64,000 nucleotides of DNA from Patescibacteria group bacterium (GCA_041660565.1 JBAZWC010000002.1:287484-351483); one strand, 5' to 3'; positions 4,624 through 58,299 are shown, counted from the first letter of the stretch. The notes: generated by a model from the sequence alone, not told the origin. Numbers and translations: made by a program.

Positions 4624-4646
4624 AGTTTAGGAAAATATCACGACTG

Positions 4647-4745
4647 GTGTAGGGGCGGACTCATACTTGTCCTCCGTAGCCTTCTTGACTTTCCGTAGCT
4701 TTAGCGTAGGAGGTGGCGAAGGGGGATGTCCGCCCGTTTGGGGTG
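4647..4745. repeat. Palindromic repeat family C, long variant C1
   Basis: GTAGGGGCGGACTCATA..[~60-bp insert]..ATGTCCGCCCGTTTGG. Core hairpin GGGCGGAC/GTCCGCCC. Confidence 0.8.
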
Positions 4746-4852
4746 ATTTAATCGACAATAACCAGTAAAAGTGATATTATGATTCCGAAACAATAGCTGT
4801 CTTGGCTAATCGCTGTCGACGTAACGAGAACACCTGAAAGGAGAAACAGGTC

Positions 4853-5263
4853 ATGCTCGGTAAAGTCGGGTACATAACGGTAGCGATGGTTACCATTCTT
4901 CTCGGGATATTGTGCCTAATCATTCGAGACGATGGCCCACTGTTCGACGATCGTTCCGCGACGTTGGTGGCGCAGATCGATGCCGCCGACATGTCGGATT
5001 GTATCTCTCTGGTTGGTGCAGACACATCGGTGCTGACGAAGTCTCGGACGATGGTGGTGGTGTCGGTGCCGTTTGGGAATGCCAGTAGCCCGCCACTTTT
5101 CCAGAATACGTCGAAAAGCGCGACGACTGTGCGCTGGTTTCTGACCGGGGAGGAGAGAATACCGCTCAGTCTGACCACACAGGTCAAGGCCGGAACGTCC
5201 TATATCTCGGCTGAGCCGATCGATCTCGGCCACGGAAAGATGCGACTAAGGGTCTCGCTATGA
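4853..5263 (+). CDS. Hypothetical membrane-anchored protein encoded on GC-rich micro-island I1
   Basis: Strong RBS AAAGGAG 7 nt upstream, an N-terminal hydrophobic helix, and an intrinsic terminator immediately downstream. GC content is visibly above the backbone. Confidence 0.6.
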   Translation: MLGKVGYITVAMVTILLGILCLIIRDDGPLFDDRSATLVAQIDAADMSDCISLVGADTSVLTKSRTMVVVSVPFGNASSPPLFQNTSKSATTVRWFLTGEERIPLSLTTQVKAGTSYISAEPIDLGHGKMRLRVSL

Positions 5264-5273
5264 CGGCGGGCGT

Positions 5274-5313
5274 GGGGTCGGATGACAAGAGTTGTCCGAC
5301 CCCGTTAATTTTT
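5274..5313 (+). terminator. Intrinsic terminator of island I1
   Basis: Hairpin GGGGTCGGATGACAAGAGTTGTCCGACCCC followed by TTAATTTTTT. Confidence 0.65.
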
Positions 5314-5315
5314 TA

Positions 5316-5348
5316 TATAGATTCTGGGTCAAGCCCGGGATGACAATC
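5316..5348. repeat. Palindromic repeat family B, copy B1
   Basis: TATAGATTCTGGGTCAAGCCCGGGATGACA, near-identical to B2 at 40413. Confidence 0.8.
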
Positions 5349-9630: not shown

Positions 9631-9755
9631 TGTCATTTCGACTCCTCGAGCGTTGTCTCGAGGGTGGAGAAATCTTTCAAAAAGACGGGAATGGATTCTT
9701 TCTTGAGATTTCTCCGACACAGTCGATCTGCGGCTCTCCTAGGGTCGAAATGACA
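9631..9755. repeat. Palindromic repeat family A, full copy A2
   Basis: TGTCATTTCGACTCCTCG..GGAGAAATCT..AGATTTCTCC..GGGTCGAAATGACA. The terminal ATG of the repeat is the mnmA start codon. Confidence 0.85.
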
Positions 9756-10823
9756 AATAAAAAACATTCAAATCAAACTGTTTGTGTCGCCATGTCCGGT
9801 GGAGTGGATAGTGCGGTGGCTGCGGCATTGTTAGTAGAACAAGGCTTCCGGGTTATTGGCGCATTTATGAAGAACTGGTCTTTGAATCAACAAGGAGTTA
9901 GTTACCAGCCGTGGGAAAACGAAGCTAACGTGGCGAAAGCGGTTTGTGAAAAACTAAAGATTCCTTTTCATATTTTTGATTTCGAAAAGGAATATCTGTC
10001 TCGGGTGGTACAATCGTTTGTCCAAGATTACGCGCGCGGACTGACGCCGAACCCCGATGTTTTATGCAATCGTGAAATTAAATTTGATCTTTTTATTAAA
10101 GAAGCGCAGAAACTGGGTGCAGATTTAATTGCCACCGGCCATTACGCTCAAATCAAACCGGTCGAGGGTCGGCTTGGATTGTTTGCAGGTGCGGATTCGA
10201 ACAAAGATCAGTCGTATTTTTTGTACACATTAGGTCAGCCCGAACTCAAATTTACTTTGTTTCCAATTGGGCATCTAACCAAGCCTGAGGTGAGAAAAAT
10301 AGCAGCGGATCTGAATTTGCCAAACGCGGCTAAAAAAGATAGCCAAGGTGTATGTTTTATCGGTCCGGTTTCAATGCGCCAATTTTTGCAACATTACCTT
10401 AAGCCGCAGTCGGGTGAAGTGGTGGACCAAAATGGGCGCGTGATCGGTCATCACGACGGGGTGATTTATTATACCGAAGGCCAGCGTCATGGCTTTAGCA
10501 CCGGCGGAAATCACGAGCCATTATATATTGCACGCAAATATATTAAGAAAAATCAGTTGGTGGTGGTGCCGGCAAACGACCCGATGTTATATTGCCAATC
10601 GGTCAATCTAATCGACTGCAGTTGGGTAGATCAACCTATCCCAGATCAAACAAAATGTTTGGTGCGAATTCGCTATCGTCAGCCGTTGCAGCCGGCAATT
10701 GTTAGTGTTAACGATGGTAAATATCAAATCGATTTTGAAAATCCAATTGAGTTTGTCAGTGCCGGCCAATCTGCAGTGATTTATTTGGGCGAGCAAGTCC
10801 TTGGTGGGGGGATAATTGCCTAA
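9750..10823 (+). CDS. mnmA: tRNA-specific 2-thiouridylase
   Basis: PP-loop VAMSGGVDSAVAA, 357 aa. Confidence 0.9.
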   Translation: MTNKKHSNQTVCVAMSGGVDSAVAAALLVEQGFRVIGAFMKNWSLNQQGVSYQPWENEANVAKAVCEKLKIPFHIFDFEKEYLSRVVQSFVQDYARGLTPNPDVLCNREIKFDLFIKEAQKLGADLIATGHYAQIKPVEGRLGLFAGADSNKDQSYFLYTLGQPELKFTLFPIGHLTKPEVRKIAADLNLPNAAKKDSQGVCFIGPVSMRQFLQHYLKPQSGEVVDQNGRVIGHHDGVIYYTEGQRHGFSTGGNHEPLYIARKYIKKNQLVVVPANDPMLYCQSVNLIDCSWVDQPIPDQTKCLVRIRYRQPLQPAIVSVNDGKYQIDFENPIEFVSAGQSAVIYLGEQVLGGGIIA

Positions 10824-10840
10824 GCAATAAAATTTCTTGT

Positions 10841-12235
10841 ATGATGGTTATGGAGGGCTGCATCGTTCGCCTGATTCGTTATAGTTTATTATCAACATTG
10901 TTGGTTGCATTGCTAATACAATCGACCGGTTTAGCATATGCACAATCACTAATTAGTCCGAATTACGAAGTTGATGCGATGGGATTCTTCTCAACAGATT
11001 TGCCTCAAGATTTTGCTCCTCCTGAAATTTTGACTGGTCCGACAGTTAGCTCGGTTACTTCTGGGTCGGCTATTGTAGAGTGGACCACCGATATTGTTAG
11101 TAGCTCGGTGGTGGCGTTTGGTTTGACCACCGATTATGGTCAAGAGAGCGCAAAAACCAGCGATCGTGTGACCAGCCATACGGTAAAATTAAACGGCTTA
11201 TCGCCAGAACGCACCTATCACTATCTGATCAAGAGCGCGGACGCAATGGGGCGATACGGTACCGGAACCGACCAAGTTATCACCACCACTTCTAATATCT
11301 CGCCTATATCTGAAGTACAAATTACTGATATCACCTTAAGTTCCGCTATTGTTAGTTGGAAAACAGCAGCGCTGTCAAATTCAACCGTGAATTACGGTCA
11401 ATCTTCTTCTTATGGTCAAACAGTTGGCGACCAAAGCGCCGGTACTACTACGGCTCATACTATTAGATTGAGTTCATTAAGTTCTGGCACCACATATCAC
11501 ATTCGTGTGTCCGGCGTAAATTCAGAAGGCGCCGACATCTTTTCTGACGATTATATCTTTACCACCCTTAGCTTACCGGTGTTAGTAAGCTATTCTTTAG
11601 GCACGATTACCGGTAATACGGCTGAAATATTGTGGACTACGAATGTACCGGTGGACTCGTTTATTTCTTATTGGAAAGAGGGCACGGATGAAAGTAGTGC
11701 CAAAACTCAGGCAAAACCAGAATTGGGCAAAACGCACATCATGGTTATTACTGGGTTAGAGGGTAAAACGCACTACTATTTCCGTATTACAGGGCGCGAT
11801 GCAAATGGTAATAATTTAAGATCAGAAATTTTATCATTTAATACACCATTGGACACCACGCCTCCGGTAATAACTAATATAAAAAGTGAGGTCAACTCCA
11901 ACTCTAAAAGTGATTCATTACAGCTTGTAATATCGTGGGATACAGACGAGCCGGCAAAGAGCCAGATCGAGTATAATCTTGGTCCGGTTGCCACGACTTA
12001 CAGCCTGAGCTCAAAACCAGATGATGGGTTAAATGTTAACCACATTATTATCGTGTCACCGCTGAAATCTTCCTCAAACTACCACTTTAGAATTAAAGCT
12101 ACTGATGCTTCGGGCAATGCTGGTTTTAGCGCCGATTACAGCGTTTTAACGCCGCAGAAACAGAAATCGTTGTTACAGATTATTTTAGATAAATTAGAAC
12201 AGACTTTTGGTTGGTTGCGAAAAATTGGCTCATAA
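10841..12235 (+). CDS. Secreted protein with multiple fibronectin type-III-like repeats
   Basis: N-terminal signal-like hydrophobic segment. Repeated about 90-aa modules with motifs such as TAVVEWTTD, AIVSWKT and AEILWTT (Fn3/purple-acid-phosphatase N-terminal-like). Confidence 0.7.
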   Translation: MMVMEGCIVRLIRYSLLSTLLVALLIQSTGLAYAQSLISPNYEVDAMGFFSTDLPQDFAPPEILTGPTVSSVTSGSAIVEWTTDIVSSSVVAFGLTTDYGQESAKTSDRVTSHTVKLNGLSPERTYHYLIKSADAMGRYGTGTDQVITTTSNISPISEVQITDITLSSAIVSWKTAALSNSTVNYGQSSSYGQTVGDQSAGTTTAHTIRLSSLSSGTTYHIRVSGVNSEGADIFSDDYIFTTLSLPVLVSYSLGTITGNTAEILWTTNVPVDSFISYWKEGTDESSAKTQAKPELGKTHIMVITGLEGKTHYYFRITGRDANGNNLRSEILSFNTPLDTTPPVITNIKSEVNSNSKSDSLQLVISWDTDEPAKSQIEYNLGPVATTYSLSSKPDDGLNVNHIIIVSPLKSSSNYHFRIKATDASGNAGFSADYSVLTPQKQKSLLQIILDKLEQTFGWLRKIGS

Positions 12236-12243
12236 ATAAAGTT

Positions 12244-12272
12244 GACCCCGGCGCGCCTAAGCGGTCGGGGTC
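12244..12272. terminator. Bidirectional hairpin between convergent genes
   Basis: GACCCCGGCGCGCCTAAGCGGTCGGGGTC. Confidence 0.5.
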
Positions 12273-12709
12273 TTGCTAGCAATGGCTTGGCGGAGTTGGG
12301 CCAGATAGTGAATGGCTCGTCTCAGGCCAGTTGGGGCGCCGGATTCTATCCGAAGTCGTTTGGCTAGTTGGTCGATGATCTTGCGCTCGTCCTCGGGCAA
12401 CATCATGTAGATATTCCGGCCCCACCGGCCGAGGGTACATGGCGCAGACTGAAGTGGGTTGGTTCGCGTTGGTGTGCGAATTATGGCTCCGCCGACACAG
12501 GCGCTCGAAACGAATTCGCTAATGGTGATACAGTCTCCGTACGCTCGGTGGCGCGTGAACTGGCCGAATGTCGACATGGGCGGGTGCTTGCCTGCCTCCT
12601 CACCCAATACTAACGTCAACAGCTTGGTGGAATATCTGATGTCGCCTGCCCGATAAAGCAGCCCAATGATCACATCGTGCGGGATCGACGTTACCACAGA
12701 CATCGAACC
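12257..12709 (-). CDS. Hypothetical protein on GC-rich micro-island I2
   Basis: Strong RBS GGGAGGTGG before the ATG (MSVVTSIPHD..). GC content is visibly high. No recognisable family. The longer ORF-track start at 12850 is unlikely. Confidence 0.5.
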   Translation of the reverse strand, partial: GSMSVVTSIPHDVIIGLLYRAGDIRYSTKLLTLVLGEEAGKHPPMSTFGQFTRHRAYGDCITISEFVSSACVGGAIIRTPTRTNPLQSAPCTLGRWGRNIYMMLPEDERKIIDQLAKRLRIESGAPTGLRRAIHYLAQLRQAIASKTPTA

Positions 12710-12849
12710 ACCTCCCAGAGATGTTCTAGCAAGACACGGTCTTGCTTGATTTGGATGATAGCACAAACTTCGCTTTCCGTCATTAGTTCTCTGATTCCCT
12801 TTACATCCATTTTTTTTATTGTTACCATTATTTATGAAAGTGAGGAACA

Positions 12850-13303
12850 AATGCGACGAAAACGAGTAATTTTATCAATTGCGTATATTGTGATTGCAGC
12901 AGTAGTGGTTTATGCCATTGTTTATACCAAAGGGTTTGGTTTATTTGATAAAAAAGACAGTGGGTCTGGTTGGTCGGCCGTGTTCCTAACCAATGGTCAA
13001 GTGTATTTTGGCCATCTAAAGGGGCAAAACAATCAGTTCTCAACGCTTTCAGACATTTACTACTTGCAAGTTGAGCAACAGTCTTCACTACAGCCAGAAG
13101 CAACAAAATCGACTGTCGCATCTCCTTCTGCTTCATCTAACCTGTCTTTAATTAAGCTAGGAAATGAGTTGCACGGGCCAAAAGATCAAATGACCATTAA
13201 CCGTGACCAGATTCTGTTTATCGAAGAGATGAAAACAGGTTCAAAGGTGGTTACTGCTATCGAAGCATATATAAAGAACCCAACCGCAACTCCAACACCA
13301 TAG
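12850..13303 (+). CDS. Small membrane-anchored protein, unknown function
   Basis: RBS GTGAGGAAC, start MRRKRVILSIAYIVIAAVVVYAIVY (TM helix), Ser/Thr-rich C-terminus. Confidence 0.6.
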
Positions 13304-13364
13304 TATAAACTGATTTTCAATATCGTATTGGCGGAACTTTGTGTCCGCCTTTATGATATTAACA

Positions 13365-13412
13365 AAATCTCAAATCCAAATTTTTAATTTTTAAAATTGT
13401 AATTTAGAATTT
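13365..13412. repeat. AT-rich repeat family F (F3)
   Basis: aaatccaaatttttaatttttaaaattgtaatttagaattt. Confidence 0.5.
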
Positions 13413-13423
13413 CGCCTCGTATG

Positions 13424-13434
13424 TGCTATAAATA
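13424..13434 (+). promoter_or_regulatory. Extended -10 promoter TGTGCTATAAAT upstream of recG
   Basis: Same TGTGCTATAA context as at 841 and 19908. Confidence 0.4.
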
Positions 13435-13438
13435 ACGT

Positions 13439-15508
13439 ATGATAACTTTAGATTCTCCAATTGAGGTGGTGGCTGGGGTAGGGCCGGCGATTGCGGCTAA
13501 ACTGCACAGCCGCGGTATTAATATTGTGCGTGATTTGCTGTCGTTTACACCCATGCGATATATCGATTTTAGCCATCCCAAAAAATCGAACAGCCTAATG
13601 GCGGGCAAATGGGCGGTGATTTCGGGGACAATTACCGGATGTCATCAGGAACACAGTTTTCGTAAGCGGATGGCGATAATCAAAGCGGAAATTACAGACG
13701 ATGCCGGTAAAATTGAAGCGGTGTGGTTTAACCAGCCGTTTTTGACTCAAATTTTACGTGTTGGCCGCCCGGTGCGTTTACATGGCCTGGTTATTCAAGA
13801 CCAGTTTGGAAAAAAGATCTTGCGCAATCCGGAAATTCAATTAACCGCTGATGGCAAGCCGGAAGTGAGATATTCCACCAAGAGTGGCATCGAAAGCGGG
13901 CGTTTTAAGCATATTATCAACTCAATTCTGCCATTAACCGACAGCTTACCAGATCCGCTGCCACCAGATTTGCTCAAAAAACTCAAATTGATTTCATTAT
14001 CGCAGGCGCTCAGGTGGTGCCATCAACCCGAAAAAATTTCAGATGTAACATTGGCGCGAACGCGTTTAGCAATTGATGAGTTGTGGACTTTGATGGTGCT
14101 AACCAAATTAACCAAACAACAAAACCAGGCTCATCCGGCATTAAAAATTGCGGTGGACGAGACGCGGGTTAAAAATGATGTTGACCGTTTGCCATTTAAA
14201 TTAACCGATGGTCAAAATAAGGCGATCGGTCAAATTCTGTCCGACATATCTAAAACGGTGCCGATGCGACGGTTGCTGAATGGCGATGTCGGATCAGGCA
14301 AAACGGTGGTGGCAATGTTGGCGTGTCATCAAGCCATTTTATCGGGTTGGCGGGCAATTATGATTGCGCCAACAGTGGTTTTAGCCTGGCAGCATATACG
14401 TAATTGGCAAAAACTGTATCCAAATGTGCCCAGTTTTATTTTTACCGGCAACGGGGTGTGGTTTAACGGGCAAAAGATCAAAACATCTGAAATAAAATCG
14501 ACATTAGATAATAATCCGGCCGCATTTATCTGCGGCACACACGCGGTATTTTCACCGGAACTGGAATTGGTAAATAATACCGCGCTGGTGATTGTAGATG
14601 AACAGCATCGGTTTGGGGTAATGCAACGAGCATTTTTCTCCCAAAATCCCAAAGCGGTGCCGCATTTGCTATCGATGTCCGCCACCCCAATTCCGCGCAC
14701 TGCGGCATTGGTGTTGTACGGCGATATGGACGCCAGTATTTTACCCGAGAAGCCGGCTGGACGAATTCAAATCACCTCAAAATTAGTATCAGACAACGGC
14801 CGTGAAATGATGTACAAATTTATCGACCAACTAATTGATAAAGGGGAGCGTGTTTACATTGTTTGCCCTCTAATTTCACCACCAGATCCGGACGAAGAGT
14901 TTGGCCAGTTTAACTTTGGTGATGATCGTAAAACCGTGATTGCCGAGTTTGAAAAGTTGCAAAAAACGGTCTTTAGTCATCGCCGCATTGGTTTGTTGCA
15001 CGGTAAAATGAAAGCCGCCGAAAAAGATGCGGTGTTAACCAGTTTTCGAGATGGAGAGTTGGACATTTTGATCACCACTTCGGTTATCGAAGTGGGGGTA
15101 GATGTGCCCGAGGCCACGGCGATGGTGATAGAAGGGGCAGAGTATTTTGGTTTGGCGCAGCTGCATCAGTTGCGTGGGCGAGTGGGCAGAAGTGATAAGC
15201 CTTCATACTGTTTCCTATGCGCTGCCAACTGGAACGAAAGCACTCAAAGCCGTTTAGAGCTATTGGTAAAATATCATGATGGATTTAGCCTGGCCGAACA
15301 AGATTTGCAACTGCGTGGCCCAGGTGAGCTTTACGGTACTATTCAAGCGGGGGTAATTCCGTTTAAATACGCCTCACTCGCCGACAAAAATTATATTGAG
15401 ATTGCCAAACAAATCGCTGATGAAATTATTACCACCCCAGTCGAAAAACGCTCTCCCGAATTAGAGTCTTGGCTCTCTACGCATCAAAATATGTTACATG
15501 TGGAATAA
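13439..15508 (+). CDS. recG: ATP-dependent DNA helicase RecG
   Basis: Walker A GDVGSGKT, DEQHRFG motif, RecG wedge domain and helicase C-terminus, 689 aa. Confidence 0.92.
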   Translation: MITLDSPIEVVAGVGPAIAAKLHSRGINIVRDLLSFTPMRYIDFSHPKKSNSLMAGKWAVISGTITGCHQEHSFRKRMAIIKAEITDDAGKIEAVWFNQPFLTQILRVGRPVRLHGLVIQDQFGKKILRNPEIQLTADGKPEVRYSTKSGIESGRFKHIINSILPLTDSLPDPLPPDLLKKLKLISLSQALRWCHQPEKISDVTLARTRLAIDELWTLMVLTKLTKQQNQAHPALKIAVDETRVKNDVDRLPFKLTDGQNKAIGQILSDISKTVPMRRLLNGDVGSGKTVVAMLACHQAILSGWRAIMIAPTVVLAWQHIRNWQKLYPNVPSFIFTGNGVWFNGQKIKTSEIKSTLDNNPAAFICGTHAVFSPELELVNNTALVIVDEQHRFGVMQRAFFSQNPKAVPHLLSMSATPIPRTAALVLYGDMDASILPEKPAGRIQITSKLVSDNGREMMYKFIDQLIDKGERVYIVCPLISPPDPDEEFGQFNFGDDRKTVIAEFEKLQKTVFSHRRIGLLHGKMKAAEKDAVLTSFRDGELDILITTSVIEVGVDVPEATAMVIEGAEYFGLAQLHQLRGRVGRSDKPSYCFLCAANWNESTQSRLELLVKYHDGFSLAEQDLQLRGPGELYGTIQAGVIPFKYASLADKNYIEIAKQIADEIITTPVEKRSPELESWLSTHQNMLHVE

Positions 15509-15536
15509 TTTGGGTTAACCTCGTACATCATGACTA

Positions 15537-15570
15537 GTGTAGGGGCGGACTCATATGTCCGCCCTCTGGC
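15537..15570. repeat. Palindromic repeat family C, copy C2
   Basis: GTGTAGGGGCGGACTCATATGTCCGCCC. Confidence 0.85.
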
Positions 15571-15628
15571 GGTAATTTGTCTAAATATTTGCTGAGTGAT
15601 ATTATCTATTTAAGGAGATCGGAAAAGT

Positions 15629-16114
15629 ATGGAAGATTATGATGACAAAGCAACGGATTCGCAAAATGGTTATAATTGGGGTGCGTTCTGGCTGACTGGG
15701 ATTTGGGGTGCCTGCCACGGATATTGGCTATCATTGGCATATATTCCTCTTATTCTTGTTGCATTATTTTTATCAATATTTTCTATTGTCAATGTGGCCG
15801 CGCACCTATCTCGAAGCTCTTTAGCATTAGCATATCCATTAATCTTATTGTCTGTGGTAGTCGATATTTTGACGGTTATTACCTTGTACAGATTTGGTCG
15901 TAAAGGGAACAAACTTGCTTGGATAATGCGAGGTTCTCGTGACAAAGAGTCATATAAAAAACGTGAAAAAAATTGGGCGATAGCTGGTTGGGTCGTTGGA
16001 GTGATAGCTGCTGTATGGTATGTGAGTGTGATTTATGTTTCAGTTGCTAATGAATATTCCTCGCCAGATTGTGGTGACGTAATGTCAATTGAATGTTTTC
16101 AGATATCGAAATAA
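15629..16114 (+). CDS. Membrane protein, unknown function
   Basis: Three to four hydrophobic helices. RBS AAGGAG upstream. Confidence 0.6.
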   Translation: MEDYDDKATDSQNGYNWGAFWLTGIWGACHGYWLSLAYIPLILVALFLSIFSIVNVAAHLSRSSLALAYPLILLSVVVDILTVITLYRFGRKGNKLAWIMRGSRDKESYKKREKNWAIAGWVVGVIAAVWYVSVIYVSVANEYSSPDCGDVMSIECFQISK

Positions 16115-16167
16115 ATTAAATGAGCGCTGACCTATAAAAAATACGCCATATCTGTTATAATAAATAC

Positions 16168-16575
16168 GTGGACAAGCTGCTAGATTGGTTAGAAAAGTAT
16201 CGAGTGGTGATGGGAGGGGTGATCGCCGTTGTTATTGTCGGCATTGGTGGATTGCTGATTTGGTACGACAGGCATCCAAACACCACCACCATTTCTACGC
16301 GCACGTTAGTGAGTCAAACTACAGTACCGGCGAGTGGGGCGGAAATTACCACAACATCCGCCAAATCTAACTCCAGTTTGATCAACATTAACACGGCAAA
16401 TGCCGAGCAGTTAGACAGTTTGCCCGGGATTGGGGCAACATACGCTCAGCGGATAATTGATTATCGCGTTGCGCATGGTAACTACAAAACAACTCACGAT
16501 TTAGTTTTAGTTAAGGGAATTGGTGAAGGTACGTACACTAAATTGAAAGATTTAGTGACAACAGGAGGGGAATAG
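16168..16575 (+). CDS. comEA: Competence protein ComEA (helix-hairpin-helix DNA-binding)
   Basis: N-terminal TM helix and C-terminal HhH motifs INTANAEQLDSLPGIGATYAQRII..LVLVKGIGEGT. Confidence 0.85.
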   Translation: MDKLLDWLEKYRVVMGGVIAVVIVGIGGLLIWYDRHPNTTTISTRTLVSQTTVPASGAEITTTSAKSNSSLININTANAEQLDSLPGIGATYAQRIIDYRVAHGNYKTTHDLVLVKGIGEGTYTKLKDLVTTGGE

Positions 16576-16578
16576 TAT

Positions 16579-16664
16579 GCGGATGTGGTGGAATGGCAGA
16601 CACGATAGCTTTAGGAGCTATTGGAGGAAACTCCGTGGAGGTTCAAGTCCTCTCATCCGCACCA
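16579..16664 (+). tRNA. tRNA-Leu (anticodon TAG), long variable arm
   Basis: Acceptor GCGGATG/CATCCGC, anticodon loop TTTAGGA, T-arm GGTTCAAGTCC, 3' CCA. Confidence 0.8.
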
Positions 16665-17986: not shown

Positions 17987-18004
17987 TGTTTTTTTGATGA
18001 TGTG

Positions 18005-18104
18005 CTCCTCACCCGGCCTACGGCCACCCTCTCCTCAGGGAGGAGAGGGGATCCCCTTCTCCTCGTTTTTGAGGAGAAGGTGCCTGTCAAGGCGGATGAG
18101 GAGG
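18005..18104. repeat. Palindromic repeat family D, copy D2
   Basis: Near-identical to D1: CTCCTCACCCGGCCTACGGCCACCCTCTCCTCAGGGAGGAGAGGGG..CCCTTCTCCTC..GAGGAGAAGGTGCC..GGCGGATGAGGAGG. Confidence 0.85.
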
Positions 18105-18113
18105 GAGTCGATC

Positions 18114-19612: not shown

Positions 19613-19675
19613 TTACTCTCCTTGTCGAATATATTGTAGCCGTGAAATTGGCAAAAAACAAGAGTAAAAGAAATC

Positions 19676-19703
19676 GTCCCGGGGCACAGAGCGGCCTCGG
19701 GAC
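19676..19703 (-). terminator. Minus-strand intrinsic terminator after the small GC-rich ORF
   Basis: Hairpin GTCCCGGGGCACAGAGCGGCCTCGGGAC. On the minus strand it is followed by a T-rich run (GATTTCTTTTACTCTTGTTTTTTGCC). Confidence 0.5.
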
Positions 19704-19741
19704 GGTGATAATCGCGCCCCATTGTCAGTTGCTATACCCAG

Positions 19742-19879
19742 TCACCATAGCTTGTTGTTGACGGTCACCTGTTGGGCTGGCAACTTCCGGCTTCGCACTT
19801 CATGGAACAGGCCGAGCAATAGGAATGCGCAAACGAATAGTACAAATACGATGTCACGCCACCGTGTATCTTTGTTCAT
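19742..19879 (-). CDS. 45-aa hydrophobic peptide on GC-rich micro-island I7 (not in the ORF track because it is under 60 aa)
   Basis: RBS GGGAG 8 nt before the ATG. Peptide MNKDTRWRDIVFVLFVCAFLLLGLFHEVRSRKLPAQQVTVNNKLW has a single TM helix. GC-rich codons, own terminator. Confidence 0.45.
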   Translation of the reverse strand: MNKDTRWRDIVFVLFVCAFLLLGLFHEVRSRKLPAQQVTVNNKLW

Positions 19880-19907
19880 CTGACGTCTCCCGTTGCTAGA
19901 ATGTGTC

Positions 19908-19927
19908 AGCATGTGCTATATTATAAT
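19908..19927 (+). promoter_or_regulatory. Extended -10 promoter TGTGCTATATTATAAT upstream of miaA
   Basis: TGn plus TATATT/TATAAT. The start codon lies within or right after it, so the mRNA may be leaderless. Confidence 0.4.
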
Positions 19928-20801
19928 GACTATGAAACAAAAAGTCAAACAAATTATCGTGCTCGCGGGGCCAACTGCTAGTGGTAAAACCGATCTGGCT
20001 GCTGATTTGATCAAAAAATATCCGCTCGAAATAATTTCGGCTGATTCGCGACAGGTTTATCGTGGGCTGGATATTGGTAGTGGCAAAGATAAAACCGTGC
20101 CACAGTTCTTAATTGATGTGGTTAATCCGGAGAACGGATTTACTGTGGCGGATTTCAAGAAACTAGCCGAAGAAAAAATTGAACAAATCTGGCAAAGAGG
20201 GAACACGCCCCTAATTGTCGGCGGCACCGGCTTTTACATTGAGGCATTGATGTTTGATCAAACCACAAACCAAACGCCGCCAAATAAGTCGATCAGACAA
20301 AAACTCGAGCCGCTTTCCGGTGCAGAGCTATTAGAAATAATCGCGCGAGTTGACGCGATGACCGCTAGCAAAATCGATGTCAATAATCGCCGACGTTTAA
20401 TTCGCGCAGCGGAAATTATCTCGGCAACAAAAAAGCCGATTGCCCCGGTTTCGCATCAGTTGCGCACCGACGCTCGGGTTAGCTGCTTCGTGCTTGATGT
20501 ACCGCGTGAGGAGCTGTATAAGAGAATCGATAAACGAGTAGATGATCGGTTGAAGATCGGAATGATCGAAGAAGTTGAGCATTTAATCTTGGCCGGAGTC
20601 TCAAAAGAGTGGTTAGTTTCACTCGGGCTTGAATATCGCGCCATCACTCGATTCCTATCAGGTGAGGTTGGGCGCGACGAAATGGTGAAACAGTTAAAAT
20701 ATGACACGCACGCCTTTGCCAGACGGCAAATATCATATTTTAAGAGATGGAAATTCGCCGAAGCACTAAGCAAAAAAAGAATTTTAAATTTTAAATTTTA
20801 A
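19926..20801 (+). CDS. miaA: tRNA dimethylallyltransferase
   Basis: P-loop AGPTASGKT and DSRQVYRGLDIGSGK. The start is ATG 19926 or ATG 19932; the ORF-track start at 19893 is unlikely. Confidence 0.88.
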   Translation: MTMKQKVKQIIVLAGPTASGKTDLAADLIKKYPLEIISADSRQVYRGLDIGSGKDKTVPQFLIDVVNPENGFTVADFKKLAEEKIEQIWQRGNTPLIVGGTGFYIEALMFDQTTNQTPPNKSIRQKLEPLSGAELLEIIARVDAMTASKIDVNNRRRLIRAAEIISATKKPIAPVSHQLRTDARVSCFVLDVPREELYKRIDKRVDDRLKIGMIEEVEHLILAGVSKEWLVSLGLEYRAITRFLSGEVGRDEMVKQLKYDTHAFARRQISYFKRWKFAEALSKKRILNFKF

Positions 20802-34366: not shown

Positions 34367-34435
34367 GTTGACTTTTGGTGCTGAATCACGTAATATAAAA
34401 GATAGCCGAGATGGATGGCCAGTTTTTTGTTATTT

Positions 34436-38895: not shown

Positions 38896-38980
38896 GCCCG
38901 GGTGGTGAAATTGGCATACACGCGACACTTAAAATGTCGTTTCGAAAGAATTGCGGGTTCGAGTCCCGCCCTGGGCACCA
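38896..38980 (+). tRNA. tRNA-Leu (anticodon TAA), long variable arm
   Basis: Acceptor GCCCGGG/CCTGGGC, anticodon loop CTTAAAA, T-arm GGTTCGAGTCC, 3' ACCA. Confidence 0.82.
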
Positions 38981-38995
38981 AAAATTGCAGCATAC

Positions 38996-39030
38996 CCTCG
39001 TCATTCCGGGCTTGACCCGGAATCTATGTA
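38996..39030. repeat. Palindromic repeat family B, copy B3 (inverted orientation)
   Basis: CCTCGTCATTCCGGGCTTGACCCGGAATCTATGTA. Confidence 0.8.
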
Positions 39031-39041
39031 AAAAGAAAAAA

Positions 39042-39386
39042 ATGAATAAATATACCGGCACTATCGTTGAAGAGTCACTAGACGACAATCGGCTTATAAA
39101 TGAATTTAATATCTTAAATACTCGTATTTCCGGGGCAGAAAATCCTGCCGACCGCTGGCACTTATATAAAGTCGATGCAACTAAAGAGCAGCTTGAGGAG
39201 CTATCAAAACATATTAAACCGCAAAAGTGGTATGCTCATTTTTGGTGTGACGACGAGATGATAGTAGTTTTCCGAGATAAAATGTTTGATCAAAAAGTTA
39301 ATGATAAAAATACTTGGGAGCCAGCAATTAGATACGGGCTCTCTCACGGTATCCCAATAAAACAGCTTGATTTTGTTGTTGAGTGA
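39042..39386 (+). CDS. Hypothetical protein
   Basis: ATG 39042 after repeat B3. The ORF-track start at 38934 would overlap the tRNA and is rejected. Confidence 0.55.
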   Translation: MNKYTGTIVEESLDDNRLINEFNILNTRISGAENPADRWHLYKVDATKEQLEELSKHIKPQKWYAHFWCDDEMIVVFRDKMFDQKVNDKNTWEPAIRYGLSHGIPIKQLDFVVE

Positions 39387-39393
39387 AAAATAA

Positions 39394-39978
39394 ATGATTG
39401 AAGTTGAGAAGAAGTTTAAATTAAGCGGGCAAGACATTGAACGGCTAACCAGGGATGCCGAGTTTTTGAAAGAGCGGACTTTTACTGACATTTATTTTGA
39501 CGATGAAAAATATTCTCTAACCTCGAACGATAAATGGTTGCGTGCGCGAGATGGCCTTTATGAACTAAAATTGCCAATGCATGCGGGGGTGGATAGAAAA
39601 GCAGACCAGTACGATGAAATTGAAGATGAACAAAAGATTCGCGAAGTGCTAAATATCCCCACCGACCAGAAAATTGACGAAATTTATGCACCATTTTGCA
39701 ATGTCACCACTACGCGCAAAAAATATAAAAAAGATCAATTTATTATTGATTTAGACGATGTCGATTACGGTGATTTTAAGTATTCGCTTGGTGAGATTGA
39801 ACTATTAGTAAATAATCAGTCAGATATTGAAAAAGCAATTGCGGAAATTATGGATTTTGCGAATAAGTATCAATTGTCCGTCGCAATGGTTCGTGGAAAA
39901 GTAATTGAATATCTAAAACAAGTTAAACCGGAACATTATCAAGCTCTAATTAAAGCCAAAGTAGTGAAAGATTTCTGA
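39394..39978 (+). CDS. CYTH-domain protein (CyaB-like/triphosphatase fold)
   Basis: N-terminal EVEKKF motif, plus YFDD and LRAR..YELKLP motifs. Confidence 0.75.
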   Translation: MIEVEKKFKLSGQDIERLTRDAEFLKERTFTDIYFDDEKYSLTSNDKWLRARDGLYELKLPMHAGVDRKADQYDEIEDEQKIREVLNIPTDQKIDEIYAPFCNVTTTRKKYKKDQFIIDLDDVDYGDFKYSLGEIELLVNNQSDIEKAIAEIMDFANKYQLSVAMVRGKVIEYLKQVKPEHYQALIKAKVVKDF

Positions 39979-39985
39979 ATAGAGT

Positions 39986-40013
39986 GAATGCCCGTCCGAA
40001 GACGGGCATTTTG
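39986..40013 (+). terminator. Intrinsic terminator
   Basis: AATGCCCGTCCGAAGACGGGCATTTTGG. Confidence 0.7.
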
Positions 40014-40036
40014 GTGTGGCGGGTAGGCGCACTGGC

Positions 40037-40306
40037 CTACTCAGCGTTCTTGTTGGCAGGTACGATGCCAGAGCCGTCATAAGGCTCGATCTCGATGACG
40101 CCTGCAACGAATGCCTCGTCAGCCTTGGCGACGTTCCTGACAAATGTCCATTCACCGTCCGGGCCTTCGTGGAAACGCCCGATGATCGTACCAGTGTCTC
40201 GAACGCGATGGGGCAGCTTTCGTTCTGGCCCGTGGCCGTCCTGCATTCCAACGAGCGCATCAGTTTCCAACATGGCCGCAATTCCGGACAGACCCTCGTT
40301 CTCCAT
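40037..40306 (-). CDS. Hypothetical 89-aa protein on GC-rich micro-island I4
   Basis: RBS AAAGGAG 8 nt before the ATG (MENEGLSG..). GC content is visibly high. No motifs recognised. Confidence 0.55.
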   Translation of the reverse strand: MENEGLSGIAAMLETDALVGMQDGHGPERKLPHRVRDTGTIIGRFHEGPDGEWTFVRNVAKADEAFVAGVIEIEPYDGSGIVPANKNAE

Positions 40307-40412
40307 TGCTCGACTCCTTTGGTATCCGAATCGATGAAAAGATCGACAGGAGTGATTGCTTATCCTGCTATGCCGTGATCATATAATTATTTGTCTTGTG
40401 ATTCAAGCTATT

Positions 40413-40446
40413 TATATAGATTCCGGGTCGAGCCCGGAATGACAGC
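40413..40446. repeat. Palindromic repeat family B, copy B2
   Basis: TATATAGATTCCGGGTCGAGCCCGGAATGACAGC. Confidence 0.85.
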
Positions 40447-40471
40447 GGAACGAATATGTTATAATGACGGC

Positions 40472-47258: not shown

Positions 47259-47412
47259 GTGATTAGCTGATTAGGCTCCGCCCGTAGGGCTACTCCTCTC
47301 CGAGCCGTAGGCTCTACGAGCTGGAGGCCGGAGGGTGATTAGGGGTTCCATAGGGGCGATACCTCGTTTCACTTCGGAAACCGAAGGTTAACACGAATCG
47401 CCCGTTTCGGCG
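47256..47412. repeat. Palindromic repeat family E, copy E2 (long composite)
   Basis: GGTGATTAGCTGATTAGGCTCCGCCCGTAGGGCT..GGAGGGTGATTAGGGG. Carries additional hairpins ending CGAATCGCCCGTTTCGGCG. Confidence 0.8.
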
Positions 47413-47487
47413 TAGTTGAAGATTATCTATCGAAGTAATATATTGATGTTGTCAGTCTGAATGACTCGTATCTCAGGGGAGAAGCGC

Positions 47488-47691
47488 ATGGAAGGGAATC
47501 GTGGCCTCGCGTCGTTGGAGGATCTGGTACGGTCTATCGGCACTGATCCAATCGATCCAATGTTCGCCACGTCGAGCGACAAGGAACGATTCGATGGGTC
47601 TTTGCGGACGGTGCTGGAACCGCTCTGGGCAGAGGACGACGTTGCTCGCGCCAAGTCGGTCGAATCTGGCCGAAGTTACATCGTATATTGA
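47488..47691 (+). CDS. Hypothetical 67-aa protein, gene 1 of GC-rich micro-island I5
   Basis: RBS AGGGGAGAAG before the ATG. GC-rich. Confidence 0.5.
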   Translation: MEGNRGLASLEDLVRSIGTDPIDPMFATSSDKERFDGSLRTVLEPLWAEDDVARAKSVESGRSYIVY

Positions 47692-47715
47692 GCTACTGTC
47701 ACGGAGGTTTGTGAG

Positions 47716-47922
47716 ATGTATGACGAGGAGCTGACCCCGATAGAGAAGCTTGTCTTGTCTAACTCGGGTGGAGTGCCTGCTGCCCATCCCGTACTGGCAA
47801 CTCGGGCAGACATCGATGCGTTTGAGGGGAGAATGCGGATTGCAACAGAGCTGACTCTCAAGGCAGACCGAAGAGCCATGGATGAGTCATGGCAGGCTGC
47901 GCGCTTCAAGCTGATCGACTGA
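47716..47922 (+). CDS. Hypothetical 68-aa protein, gene 2 of GC-rich micro-island I5
   Basis: RBS GGAGG 9 nt before the ATG. Followed by an intrinsic terminator. Confidence 0.5.
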   Translation: MYDEELTPIEKLVLSNSGGVPAAHPVLATRADIDAFEGRMRIATELTLKADRRAMDESWQAARFKLID

Positions 47923-47936
47923 GTGTCGGGTGATAG

Positions 47937-47975
47937 GCCGGGTGGATGTTCCACTCCGGCCTTTCTCTTTTTAAT
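47937..47975 (+). terminator. Intrinsic terminator closing island I5
   Basis: GGCCGGGTGGATGTTCCACTCCGGCC followed by TTTCTCTTTTT. Confidence 0.65.
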
Positions 47976-49148: not shown

Positions 49149-49272
49149 TTGTCATTTCGACTCCTCGACATTCGAGTCGAGGGTGGAGAAATCTCAAAAA
49201 AGACTGGAAGGGGTTTTATCTCAGATTTCTCCAACACAGTCGTGTTGACACACTCCTAGGGTCGAAATGACA
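49149..49272. repeat. Palindromic repeat family A, full copy A4
   Basis: TGTCATTTCGACTCCTCGACATTCGAGTCGAGGGTGGAGAAATCTC..AGATTTCTCC..CTAGGGTCGAAATGACA. Confidence 0.85.
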
Positions 49273-54883: not shown

Positions 54884-56404
54884 ATGGCGGAGTTGATGGT
54901 AGAGAAAAAAGAAGAAAATGACCTAATTAAAGCACGGGCTGAACATCTTAAATCCCTAATTGATTTAGGGGTTGATCCTTTTGCTAGCCAGAGTGAAAAA
55001 ACGCATAGTATTAAACAAGCGTTGGATTTGTGGCAAAAAAATCAGAAAGCTTGGGGGAAAGACGTTGGATCTCCGGTAGAGGACGCAGATAAATTAACGC
55101 TAGCGGGCCGCGTTACCGCGCTTAGAGGCCACGGCGGGGCTACTTTTGTGGATATTGAAGATGGTGTAGATAAAATCCAACTCCTAGCCAGTCAATCTGC
55201 GCTGGGGAAACAGTACAACTTGTGGGAGTTATTTGATTTAGGTGATTTTGTGGAAGTGTCTGGGCGATTATTTATTACCAAACGTGGCGAAGTCACGCTA
55301 CACTTAGATCATTTTAAATTGCTAACCAAATCGCTCCGTCCGCTACCCGATAAATGGAGTGGGCTGGAAGACACCGAAAAACGCTATCGCGAACGCTACG
55401 CCGATTTAATTGCCAACCCAGAGGTTAGGCAAATCTTCCGTACGCGAAGCGCAATCGTCGCCAATCTGCGAGCGCAGCTGGAATCAAACAATTTTATGGA
55501 AGTAGAGACACCAATTTTGCAATCTTTAGCCGGTGGTGCCACCGCCAAGCCGTTTATCACGCATTACAACGCCTACGATGCCGATGTGTATTTGCGCATT
55601 GCTCCCGAGCTGTATCATAAGCGGTTAGTGGTGGGCGGGTTTGAGCGAGTTTACGAGTTCGCCAAATGTTTCCGAAACGAAGGGGTAGATCATTCTCATA
55701 ATCCGGAATTTACCAACCTCGAGTTTTACGTGGCCTATTTTGACTATCAAAAACTGATGGCGTTTAGTGAAGAGATGATTCGTAAATTGGTAAAAGAGGT
55801 GATGCAGTCGGATACCACGCAATACAAAGATCACAAGATTAATTGGGCGAGACCGTTCGAACGGATTACCTTTAGAGATGCAGTAAAACATCATACCTCA
55901 ATCGATATTTGGGCGGAAACAGAGGATAGTTTACGCGCCAAACTAAAATCACTCAAAATCGATACGCCACGGTCAGCTGACTTTGGCCGAATGTGTGATT
56001 TACTACTTAAACATATGGTGCGACCAAACATTATTCAGCCTACCTTTATTATCGATCACCCGACCGTCCTGTCGCCGTTGGCAAAAAGTAAAAACGATAA
56101 AGAGGTGCAGCGATTTCAACTTTTGGTGGCTGGGGAATTTGAGCTATGTAACGCGTTTTCAGAGCTAAACGATCCGAATGTGCAGAGAGAGCGCTTTGAA
56201 AATCAGCAAAAACTGCGTGAAAAAGGCGATGAAGAGGCGCAAAGTTATGACGATGATTTTGTGCGTGCATTAGAGTACGGCATGCCGCCGACAGCCGGGT
56301 TTGGAATGGGAATTGATCGCTTGTGCGCGTTGCTAACCAACTCGAACACACTTAGAGAGGTAATTTTATTCCCATTTATGAAACCGAAAGGGAAAAATGA
56401 TTGA
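54884..56404 (+). CDS. lysS: Lysine--tRNA ligase (class II)
   Basis: OB-fold anticodon-binding N-domain. Class II motifs FRNEG and GMGIDR. Confidence 0.92.
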   Translation: MAELMVEKKEENDLIKARAEHLKSLIDLGVDPFASQSEKTHSIKQALDLWQKNQKAWGKDVGSPVEDADKLTLAGRVTALRGHGGATFVDIEDGVDKIQLLASQSALGKQYNLWELFDLGDFVEVSGRLFITKRGEVTLHLDHFKLLTKSLRPLPDKWSGLEDTEKRYRERYADLIANPEVRQIFRTRSAIVANLRAQLESNNFMEVETPILQSLAGGATAKPFITHYNAYDADVYLRIAPELYHKRLVVGGFERVYEFAKCFRNEGVDHSHNPEFTNLEFYVAYFDYQKLMAFSEEMIRKLVKEVMQSDTTQYKDHKINWARPFERITFRDAVKHHTSIDIWAETEDSLRAKLKSLKIDTPRSADFGRMCDLLLKHMVRPNIIQPTFIIDHPTVLSPLAKSKNDKEVQRFQLLVAGEFELCNAFSELNDPNVQRERFENQQKLREKGDEEAQSYDDDFVRALEYGMPPTAGFGMGIDRLCALLTNSNTLREVILFPFMKPKGKND

Positions 56405-57650
56405 TATTCAACTTATTCGCGAACATTTAGACTTGGTCAAAAAAGGACTGACAAAAAAGCAAAGCAATCCAGAGCTGGCCGTTGACGCTTTCAAACTAGA
56501 CAAAGAAAAACGACGCTTGCAAACCGAAGTCGAAGCTTTTCAATCTAACTTGAATCAGGTGTCAAAAGAAATTGCCAAAGAGTTTGGTCAAAAAAAGGTT
56601 GATTTACTTAAGCAGGCGAACCAAATTTCGGAACAGATTGACAAGCATCGCCCGCATTTAGACGCGCTTGAAAAGGATTTGAATGAGGTGATGGCGCAAA
56701 TTCCAAATATGCCCCTTGACGATGTTATTGCCGGACATTCCGATAAAGATAACAAAGTTGCCTACAAAAAAGGCGATGTACCAAAATTTGGGTTTACAGT
56801 TAAAGATCATATTCAGTTGGCGGCAGATTTAGATTTAATCGAATTTGATGCGGCGGCCAAGTCTATGGGTTCACGTTTTGCGTATCTTAAAAATGAACTA
56901 GTAGTGCTTGAATTTGCTTTAATGCGCTACGGGCTAGATCAGGCGATGAAAAGTGGGTTTAAGCCCATTCTGCCTCCAATTTTATTAAATCGAGCGGCAA
57001 TGGATGCGGCGGGGTATTTGGGACAAGCCGAAGAAGAAATTTACAAAACTCAAGATGATTTATATTTAGCGGGCACCGCCGAACAGCCCCTGTTAGCTCT
57101 GCACGCTGGGCAAATGCTCAAAAAAGAAGATTTACCGTTAAGATACGTTGGATTTTCCAGCTGTTTTAGGCGTGAAGCTGGCAGCTATGGTAAAGATGTA
57201 AAAGGCATTTTACGTATGCATCAATTTCAAAAACTGGAACTATTTAGCTTTGTAGAGCCCGAAATGGCCGAACAGGAACACAAAAAGATTTTAGAGTTAG
57301 AAGAAAAACTAATGGCCAGTCTAGACATTCCGTATCAAGTAATCGACATTTGCGCGGGGGATTTAGGTTTTCCGGCCGCCAAAAAATGGGATATTGAGGC
57401 GTGGATGGCGGGGCAAAACACTTATCGCGAAACGCATAGTTGTAGCAACTGCACCGATTTTCAAGCTAGACGGATGAATATTCGGTATAAAGATGAAAAA
57501 GGCACGCGATTTGTTTATACCTTAAACGGCACTGTTTTTTCCGAACGCCCGCTAATTGCCATTTTAGAAAATAATCAACAAAAAGACGGTTCAATTAAGG
57601 TACCAAAAGTTCTAGCGCCTTACACCGGGTTTGATGTTATAAAAAAATAA
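56397..57650 (+). CDS. serS: Serine--tRNA ligase
   Basis: N-terminal coiled-coil arm, class II core, 417 aa. Overlaps the lysS stop. Confidence 0.9.
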   Translation: MIDIQLIREHLDLVKKGLTKKQSNPELAVDAFKLDKEKRRLQTEVEAFQSNLNQVSKEIAKEFGQKKVDLLKQANQISEQIDKHRPHLDALEKDLNEVMAQIPNMPLDDVIAGHSDKDNKVAYKKGDVPKFGFTVKDHIQLAADLDLIEFDAAAKSMGSRFAYLKNELVVLEFALMRYGLDQAMKSGFKPILPPILLNRAAMDAAGYLGQAEEEIYKTQDDLYLAGTAEQPLLALHAGQMLKKEDLPLRYVGFSSCFRREAGSYGKDVKGILRMHQFQKLELFSFVEPEMAEQEHKKILELEEKLMASLDIPYQVIDICAGDLGFPAAKKWDIEAWMAGQNTYRETHSCSNCTDFQARRMNIRYKDEKGTRFVYTLNGTVFSERPLIAILENNQQKDGSIKVPKVLAPYTGFDVIKK

Positions 57651-57652
57651 TT

Positions 57653-57848
57653 CCTCCTCGTCCGCCCGCTGGGCACCTTCTCCTCCACCCTCCTTCGCAA
57701 TGCTTCGGAAGGGCAGGGAGGAGAAGGGCTTTTCTGGTATTTCCCTCTCCTCTCAGAGAAGAGGGTGACCGTAGGCCGGCCACCGGCTCGTAGACCCTCC
57801 GGGCGTAAGTCCTACGGGCTGGAGCCTACGGCTCGGAGAGGTGAGGAG
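57653..57848. repeat. Composite palindromic repeat: family D (inverted) fused to a family E module (D3/E4)
   Basis: CCTCCTCGTCCGCC..CACCTTCTCCTCCACCCTCC..GGAGGAGAAGGG..CCCTCTCCTCTCAGAGAAGAGGG..CCTACGGGCTGGAGCCTACGGCTCGGAGAGGTGAGGAG. Confidence 0.8.
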
Positions 57849-57907
57849 TCTTGTATATAAAAGAACAGGACCGAGACGCGCGATGGCGTCCCGGTCCGAA
57901 AGCGGAG

Positions 57908-58141
57908 CTACTTCTCCAGCTCCTGCATGATGTGCTTGAAGTCGCCGTCGTCGAGACGTCGCGCTATTCGGTCGAATTTGCCAGCGACGTCCATTGGATC
58001 TGGGCCTTCATGTATAACAATATCTCTTCCGTCGACCATCTTGACCCTAATGTTGCTCAGGCCGGGTTGTGCTAGCGTCTGATCGGCATAAAACGGCTCG
58101 ATGCAATCGACATAGTCAGAGTTGATAACGAGCCTCTTCAC
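57908..58141 (-). CDS. Hypothetical 77-aa protein on GC-rich micro-island I6
   Basis: GTG start (or an internal ATG). The region between the repeat composite and repeat C4 is GC-rich. Confidence 0.4.
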   Translation of the reverse strand: MKRLVINSDYVDCIEPFYADQTLAQPGLSNIRVKMVDGRDIVIHEGPDPMDVAGKFDRIARRLDDGDFKHIMQELEK

Positions 58142-58299
58142 ATGCGGGACGCCTTAGGCCTTGGGCTCGCGCACGTCCACAACCGTAAAGAACGCCATTT
58201 TGCTCACCCCCTCCTTGTCGCCACGCCTAATCTGGTGTATCTTTAAGGCGTAGGTGACAGTGATATTATTACACTATTTTACGATTTATGTCAATAATT

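Follow-up and report, generated by a model that had tools for sequence, protein, structure and literature searches.

Seven GC-rich gene islets, probably acquired horizontally, in a Saccharibacteria-type chromosome

The subject of this analysis is a 64,000-nucleotide stretch of DNA (the window throughout) from a Patescibacteria group bacterium (GCA_041660565.1, JBAZWC010000002.1:287484–351483), in which seven short islands rich in guanine plus cytosine (GC) lie dispersed in a chromosome of lower GC content. The islands, numbered 1 to 7 and carrying nine small open reading frames (ORFs; I1, I2, I3, I4a, I4b, I5, I6a, I6b and I7), are flanked by housekeeping genes (MetRS, RecG, MiaA, tRNAs, MreB, SerRS and SecA) with no surrounding prophage. 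An initial annotation had described each island as a self-contained unit of ribosome-binding site, small ORF and terminator, and had proposed that the islands were either transferred from a high-GC actinobacterial host or belong to a family of selfish elements that insert at repeats.

The presence of seven GC-rich segments in a low-GC backbone is borne out by computed base composition. The GC content is 44.3% in the window as a whole and 43.6% in the backbone once the islands are set aside, whereas the seven segments originally delimited (4750–5315, 12240–12830, 19670–19890, 33100–34370, 40015–40400, 47440–47930 and 57860–58250) have 53.0, 54.0, 53.8, 56.6, 54.7, 55.4 and 55.0%, respectively, corresponding to the 95th to 99.8th percentile of windows of the same length (z = 1.9–4.6). 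The earlier guess of 55–60% GC was slightly too high for these segments (53–57%) and right for the island cores delimited by a three-segment maximum-likelihood fit, which have 56–59% GC and lie at 4925–5305, 12244–12718, 19674–19816, 33008–34356, 39989–40312, 47273–47961 and 57654–58226. Island 3 gives the weakest signal (143–220 bp, twice the log-likelihood difference = 13).

GC at the third codon position (GC3) ranges from 0.61 to 0.70 in the nine island ORFs, as against 0.425 ± 0.044 (maximum 0.51) in 49 long backbone ORFs. In a leave-one-island-out log-likelihood ratio (LLR) test on synonymous codon choice, all nine island ORFs score above zero (+0.14 to +0.34 bit per codon) and all 55 backbone ORFs below it (maximum −0.20 bit per codon), so that codon usage differs sharply from that of the flanks, contrary to the refuting condition named in the initial annotation. 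The GC3 shift and the separation by LLR show that the anomaly is real and is located in the reading frames. Consistent with this, coding-type periodicity with the lowest GC at the second codon position is found in 9/9 island ORFs, and the GC excess sits mainly at the third codon position of the frames defined by Shine-Dalgarno (SD) sequences. The ORFs span 45–177 codons, the size range first noted, and every island protein is a singleton at 90% clustering.

Each unit is predicted to be transcribed autonomously. Island 1 (4752–5305, + strand) starts with the promoter-like pair TCGACA-17-TATTAT at 4752–4780 and encodes I1 (4853–5263, 136 aa, codon LLR +31.7 bits), an orphan with an N-terminal hydrophobic helix, followed by a hairpin at 5272–5305 and a U-tract (−26.4 kcal/mol, z −4.4). 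Island 2 (12240–12783, − strand) has ATGACG-17-TATCAT at 12783–12755 and encodes I2 (12703–12257, 148 aa), a predicted member of an uncharacterized winged-helix family; its hairpin GACCCCG...CGGGGTC (12270–12240), read by eye, spans the stop codon and has a U-rich tail. Island 3 (19674–19948, − strand), the weakest of the seven units, has TTGACT-17-TATAAT at 19948–19920 and encodes I3 (19879–19742, 45 aa, codon LLR +7.5 bits), a single hydrophobic helix, with a hairpin at ∼19719–19690 followed by a U-tract. Island 4 (33245–34355, + strand) is a two-gene operon with TTGTCA-18-AATAAT at 33245–33274, encoding I4a (33317–33850, 177 aa), a DUF218/YdcF protein, and I4b (33857/33869–34318, 153/149 aa) of the nucleoside 2-deoxyribosyltransferase (NDT) superfamily, and ending in a terminator at 34334–34355. 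Island 5 (39989–40406, − strand) has TTGAAT-17-TATGAT at 40406–40378 and encodes the orphan I5 (40306–40037, 89 aa). Island 6 (47416–47970, + strand) has TTGAAG-17-TATATT at 47416–47444 and encodes the orphans I6a (47488–47691, 67 aa) and I6b (47716–47922, 68 aa), followed by a hairpin at 47936–47961 and a U-tract. Island 7 (57868–58294, − strand) has TTGACA-18-AATAAT at 58294–58265 and a terminator at 57897–57868.

The strong SD sequences reported at the outset are present at 9/9 starts, 5–10 nt ahead of each: AGGAGA in island 1, GGAGGTG in island 2, GGGAGA in island 3, AAGGAG in island 5 and AAGGAGGGGGTG in island 7, the other four being AGGGGGA, GGAGGAG, GGGGAGA and GGAGG. A sigma-70-like hexamer pair lies on the correct strand 40–110 nt upstream in all seven units (score 9–11 of 12), which supports the presence of promoters but falls short of proof. 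A hairpin with a U-tract is found 3′ of six of the seven units, in islands 1, 3, 4, 6 and 7 by folding and in island 2 by eye. In four of the five folded cases the stability is −24.8 to −27.3 kcal/mol, with z scores of −3.7 to −5.8 relative to shuffled sequence; in island 3 the 86-nt stretch folds no better than shuffles (z −0.4), though the hairpin and its U-tract can be recognised. On the strand of island 5 itself there is no U-tract; the hairpin at 39985–40012, the only one downstream, terminates the adjacent CYTH gene on the + strand. The description of self-contained units therefore holds, as a prediction, for six of the seven islands and fails for island 5, which has no terminator of its own.

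One scan each of genome and metagenome collections yielded four relatives (L001, L020, L021 and L022) with which the flanking genes are collinear at 40–86% amino acid identity and in which the order of the tRNA array (Gly-Cys...Leu(cag)-Leu(gag)-Val-Phe...Leu(taa)) is kept. The best syntenic relative among species-representative genomes, L001, is a metagenome-assembled genome (MAG) of an uncultured Candidatus Saccharibacteria with 47% GC, and it is therefore reasonable to call the organism Saccharibacteria-like; L020 is part of the 1.04 Mb contig ORMF010723757. No tblastn match to I4a, I4b, I5, I6a or I6b was found in any of the four. Island 4 is absent at its site from L001 and L020, island 5 from L001, L020 and L021, and island 6 from L001, L020 and L022. 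Islands 4, 5 and 6 are missing from all relatives covering their sites and are on this evidence taken as lineage-specific insertions; the comparison spans these three islands.

The gap between tRNA-Leu(cag) and tRNA-Leu(gag) measures 1336 bp in the window, where it holds island 4, 519 bp in L020, with a GIY-YIG endonuclease gene only, and 1824 bp in L001, with the GIY-YIG gene and a gene for a 402-aa protein in DNA of 36–42% GC (L001 5600–7400). Between tRNA-Leu(taa) and the SLT transglycosylase gene there are 1.4 kb in the window and 0–110 bp in L020, L001 and L021. The YceG–MreB gap is 833 bp in the window (island 6), ∼280 bp in L020 and ∼110 bp in L022, and in L001 it holds 2.2 kb of unrelated genes. 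These gaps are variable hotspots in a rigid backbone, with GC-rich cargo specific to the lineage of the window; the cargo found there in relatives is AT-rich. An HNH endonuclease gene (38421–38888) that adjoins tRNA-Leu(TAA) is present in L020 and not in L001, and a low-GC pair at 38934–39978, consisting of a 150-aa ORF and the CYTH-domain gene, is absent from all relatives. In view of the AT-rich cargo of the relatives and the low-GC accessory genes of the window, the GC-rich units would be the conspicuous part of an accessory genome.

Island 4 is the one that had been placed between two tRNA-Leu genes, and it is indeed flanked by tRNA-Leu(CAG) at 33014–33099 and tRNA-Leu(GAG) at 34436–34521. 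Its first part, 33100–33240 (+ strand), is a GC-rich stretch 3′ of tRNA-Leu(CAG) that aligns with L001 5552–5640 and L020 2781–2915 in the pattern ...AAGAAG..GGCGAATGCCCTGAG..GTxGAxGGGC and ends in a hairpin and T-run. In L001 and L020 this leader precedes the small GIY-YIG endonuclease gene, which is gone from the window. The alignment indicates that 33100–33240 is an ancestral leader rather than foreign DNA. The foreign part of the island starts at ∼33241, the position of the GIY-YIG start codon in the relatives, and extends to near 34395, short of a conserved motif that lies 5′ of tRNA-Leu(gag); the YdcF–NDT operon therefore takes the place of the endonuclease gene.

This ancestral leader is one of three observations in keeping with the islands being an artefact or ancestral, either as chimeras of the assembly or as native sequence (genes or structured RNAs) whose function calls for high GC. 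The others are that the genome is a MAG and that native GC-rich repeat blocks at 47262–47420 and 57645–57850 supply part of the GC signal of islands 6 and 7. We nevertheless regard this explanation as highly improbable. An independent Logan contig (run SRR18595301) is 100% identical over 9647–16663, which includes island 2, both of its junctions and both flanking genes, and another from the same run is 100% identical over 39004–40437, covering island 5 with its CYTH-side junction and ending ∼30 bp beyond the promoter-like site of island 5; islands 2 and 5 are not an assembly artefact. Structured RNAs are ruled out as the cause of the high GC, as the matches of the whole window to Rfam at the gathering threshold are eight tRNAs only, none of them inside an island. 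Native GC-rich genes are also difficult to reconcile with a GC excess concentrated at the third position of SD-defined codons and with the lack of the genes of islands 4–6 in syntenic relatives.

The proteins of island 4 can be assigned to families. I4a matches Pfam PF02698 (DUF218; E = 3.9e-13, 49.9 bits against a gathering cut-off of 27.6), a 167-aa version is named YdcF family protein by NCBI, and it is accordingly classed as a predicted DUF218/YdcF protein. The 153-aa form of I4b scores 28.5 bits against PF05014, just below the gathering cut-off of 28.8, and the 149-aa form has a PF05014 match in precomputed annotation. Its SxGTxxE motif, which contains the nucleophile Glu, does not vary across 22 aligned homologues (E98, S92 and G94) and aligns with the BlsM, MilB and NDT structures in profile matches to the PDB. 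I4b is thus predicted to be a nucleoside/nucleotide N-glycosyl-transfer enzyme with an intact catalytic Glu; a role in nucleoside salvage would be speculation.

The closest relatives of I4b are viral. Its best relatives among 5.8 billion protein clusters are 45–50% identical, and a profile scan of IMG/VR gave 335 relatives on viral contigs, the best of them 51% identical and the top loci having 50–55% GC, so that the best viral match equals or exceeds the best in the general database. Single-protein scans of viral contigs with I4a and I4b returned nothing; the relatives of I4b on viral contigs were found by the profile scan only. Four of five homologue contexts are phage-type replication modules (with Phage_rep_O, DUF932, ClpP, DNA ligase, RecA, clamp loader and SNF2 helicase) and the fifth is a Falkowbacteria chromosome; context contigs have 36% (L024), 55% (L019) and 68% (L018) GC. 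Relatives also occur in isolated phages of Tunturiibacter and Bradyrhizobium. A YdcF gene adjoining a deoxyribosyltransferase gene was not seen in the five contexts or in 80 viral loci.

I2 has 19 distant homologues (29–36% identity) among 1.84 billion representatives, forming an unnamed family of ∼120 aa. They are found in a defence island of a Planctomycetota MAG, on a phage-like contig (with NADAR, HD, tRNA-ligase CPD, ParB and PRPP synthetase genes as neighbours) and among small ORFs of unknown function. A ribbon-helix-helix fold for the C-terminus, prompted by faint matches to NikA and Arc, was rejected, the family alignment and structural model pointing instead to one continuous domain, putatively of winged-helix type, with extra helices. 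On this model, I2 is probably a nucleic-acid-binding winged-helix protein. In the Planctomycetota MAG (L026, 6001–7888), the gene for a 490-aa HD/HD_assoc_2 protein starts 20 bp after the I2-family gene, both within the defence island, which also encodes HsdM and a nuclease of the OLD family, and the pair may be a two-gene system.

No match to I1, I3, I6a, I6b or I7 was found in Pfam, PHROGs, NCBIfam, PADLOC, 50,697 phage records or 72,556 plasmids, nor any close relative in IMG/VR, and I5 has no homologue among the 5.8 billion protein clusters. The orphan status of the former five is less secure than that of I5, for which that larger collection was searched; the 45-aa sequence of I3 is not in the protein collection. 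I1 and I3 are predicted from their hydrophobic helices to be small membrane-anchored proteins. A single-sequence AlphaFold model of I5 is uninformative (predicted local distance difference test score 40). The idea that I6a and I6b are paralogues was rejected, as BLASTP shows no similarity between them, and a weak match of I6b on a viral locus (L044) is spurious, lying inside a 501-aa helicase ORF. In I7, the ATG at 58198 is followed after 14 codons by an in-frame TAA (58156–58154, − strand), past which the frame resumes as a 77-codon ORF from GTG 58141 to 57908. I7 is probably a 97-codon gene interrupted by one nonsense mutation and appears to be decaying; alternatively, the arrangement looks like a leader peptide with re-initiation.

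The interruption of I7, together with the phage-associated families of I4b and I2, the position of island 4 between tRNA genes (a classic integration site) and the uniform codon bias across islands, is what one might expect if the islands were all that is left of degraded prophages or integrative elements (one or several), in which deletions spared neutral or useful genes. We consider this unlikely. As housekeeping genes separate the seven sites, which are spread across 53 kb, no fewer than seven separate remnants would have to be assumed. Every unit looks complete rather than truncated, and no integrase fragments, att-like duplications of tRNA 3′ ends or remnants of structural phage genes were found.

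A donor in the actinobacterial host, from which the islands would have passed to the epibiont, would account for their GC content of 55–59% and GC3 of 0.61–0.70, which exceed those of the recipient and are uniform enough to fit one GC-rich pool, and Saccharibacteria are known epibionts of Actinobacteria. The identity of the relatives points elsewhere. Only I4b and I2 have traceable relatives, and the named ones (the Tunturiibacter and Bradyrhizobium phages and the Falkowbacteria and Planctomycetota MAGs) are not actinobacterial; for six ORFs the searches made returned no relative of any kind. Typical actinobacterial GC3 is also far above 0.61–0.70, and strong amelioration would be needed to reach these values. 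Among the transfers traced in a survey of Patescibacteria from aquifers, the majority had a donor within the Patescibacteria and only 1 of ∼130 a donor in Actinomycetota (PMC12455944). Transfer from the host, as initially suggested, is therefore improbable in our estimation. We give equally little credence to a wider version, in which all seven units come from one GC-rich donor in physical contact with the epibiont (the host or a phage of the host) and were taken up piecemeal by natural transformation. If this were true, the islets would be a genomic record of the identity of the host of an uncultured Saccharibacterium, and promoter-to-terminator ‘moron’ units would also enter cellular chromosomes.

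The other origin first proposed, a family of selfish micro-elements resembling integron cassettes or miniature inverted-repeat transposable elements (MITEs) that insert beside palindromic repeats, draws on the layout common to all seven units (promoter, SD, small ORF and terminator) with their shared codon bias, and on the three or four islands that adjoin GC-rich repeats. It is largely refuted and has very little probability in our view. The islands have no common ends. Neither inverted repeats at their termini nor direct repeats in their flanks exceed chance; the longest matches in the flanks, direct or inverted, measure 6–10 nt and fall within shuffle expectation except for marginal cases. 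They share no similarity with each other, also at the protein level, and have no second copies within the window; no integrase or transposase was found in the islands or among the flanking genes scanned; and the ORFs do not recur in any other genome searched. Nor do the repeats act as evident insertion hotspots, as GC-rich repeats are present in 3/7 island-bearing and 8/30 other intergenic regions, so that regions free of islands carry them equally often and the excess is not significant. The adjacency of repeats and islands is as expected if both simply need intergenic space.

Several repeats and motifs were recorded elsewhere in the window. A MITE-like element of ∼125 bp, bounded by 12-bp inverted repeats that match perfectly (TGTCATTTCGAC ... 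GTCGAAATGACA), occurs at 9631–9755 and 49150–49272, with a partial copy at 2797–2890, and occupies whole intergenic gaps. GC-rich palindromes of the form GTAGGGGCGGAC-loop-GTCCGCCC are found at gene ends (4649, 13325, 15539, 37280, 58300 and 61251) and look like terminators or repetitive extragenic palindromic elements. A second GC-rich repeat family is located at 1863–1976, 17996–18107, 47268–47420, 57645–57850 and 63279–63360. Phased AT tracts (AAATTTTAAATTTTAAATTTTT, 5–6 bp period) just 3′ of genes, at 2765, 8505, 13364, 20775, 30283, 32929 and 38295, may be curved-DNA or UP-like elements. A 35-nt motif, TATATAGATTCYGGGTCRAGCCCGGRATGACA, lies at 5308–5342 and 40414–40447, directly upstream of the MetRS and SLT transglycosylase genes; each copy is on the far side of an island.

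Taken together, the seven islands are likely to be gene islets specific to this lineage, which its Saccharibacteria-type chromosome gained by horizontal transfer. The earlier view of the islands as compositionally foreign and acquired rather than ancestral is thereby upheld, on the strength of a codon usage that differs from the flanks and of the lack of islands 4–6 in relatives. From their shared GC3 of ∼0.61–0.70, the units would stem from a gene pool GC-richer than the 44% GC recipient. For I4b and I2 this would be the phage and mobile-element gene pool, and the overall pool would be at least partly viral. The units would have become fixed where the intergenic DNA of an otherwise conserved chromosome tolerates insertion, and they are not mobile by themselves, as they have no recombinase, terminal repeats or flanking duplications. 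Entry may have occurred by illegitimate or homology-facilitated recombination of foreign DNA at tRNA-flanked or endonuclease-occupied gaps, or at gaps prone to double-strand breaks; the other likeliest route would be that inserts once larger were trimmed by deletion until a remnant was left. The moron-like layout would allow the units to be expressed independently while leaving neighbouring operons undisturbed.

Some observations weigh against acquisition, or at least against parts of it. The best relatives are only 30–51% identical and no donor was found in the searches made, in which 6/9 island ORFs also have no detectable homologue. The relatives were checked for three of the seven islands only (islands 4–6), and they are distant, at about 50–85% amino acid identity, so that gain in the lineage of the window and loss elsewhere are not formally separable. 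ORFs of 45–89 codons are not significant by length alone in DNA of 57% GC, and their coding status is based instead on the SD sequences, frame periodicity and terminators. AT-rich DNA readily gives promoter-like matches, which are only ∼1.5-fold more frequent than in shuffles.

Horizontal acquisition as preferred here is in line with the report that individually transferred genes and genomic islands make up to 13% of genome length in Patescibacteria (PMC12455944). The phenomenon is thus known in general terms, and the islands are a clean, well-delimited example of it. It would mean that a streamlined epibiont genome of ∼1 Mb with a rigid gene order still takes up small foreign genes at a few intergenic sites, and that composition alone picks out such islands cleanly here. 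For annotation, the nine genes would be accessory cargo of likely mobile-element origin rather than part of core Saccharibacteria biology, and a phage-type nucleoside-modifying enzyme could matter to an organism dependent on nucleotide salvage. Host-derived DNA and a new class of selfish cassettes are left without support, and no new mechanism is opened.

Several known systems bear comparison with the islands. I4b resembles members of the PF05014 superfamily (NDT, Rcl/DNPH1 and BlsM/MilB) in its Pfam and PDB-profile matches and in keeping the SxGTxxE motif, and differs in a Pfam score just below the cut-off and in having viral proteins as closest relatives. As a whole, the islands are similar to genomic islets, strain-specific ORFan genes gained by horizontal transfer and in many cases viral in origin: they are small, compositionally atypical, lineage-specific and partly phage-related, and homologues are few or absent. 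ORFans gained in this way tend to exceed the host genome in AT content, whereas the islands are uniformly GC-richer. They are also similar to integron gene cassettes in their small size, mostly single genes, foreign composition and, in some cases, position beside palindromic sequences. However, integron cassettes are promoterless, are arrayed beside intI and end in attC sites, while the islands are dispersed over 53 kb, carry predicted promoters and terminators and have neither a shared recombination site nor an integrase. They are distinguished from MITEs and other transposable elements by having no terminal inverted repeats or target-site duplication beyond chance and by being single-copy in every case.

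The comparison with phage morons, a concept said to go back to Juhala and Hendrix, is a further one. Morons are defined as extra DNA between otherwise adjacent genes that departs from them in GC content and brings a promoter and a terminator of its own; the genes carried are small, number one or a few and in many cases have no known function (PMC3594210, Cumby, Davidson & Maxwell 2012). Islands 4–6 are likewise inserted between genes that are adjacent in related genomes, and the islands are unlike their neighbours in composition (GC3 0.61–0.70 compared with 0.425 ± 0.044). The promoter-like sites in 7/7 and the hairpin with U-tract in 6/7 units are sequence predictions that would extend the resemblance. 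Morons are, however, defined inside phage or prophage genomes, while the islands are in a cellular chromosome collinear with other Saccharibacteria. Because residence in a phage genome is the defining feature, the islands are not morons, but by analogy they would appear to work as morons do.

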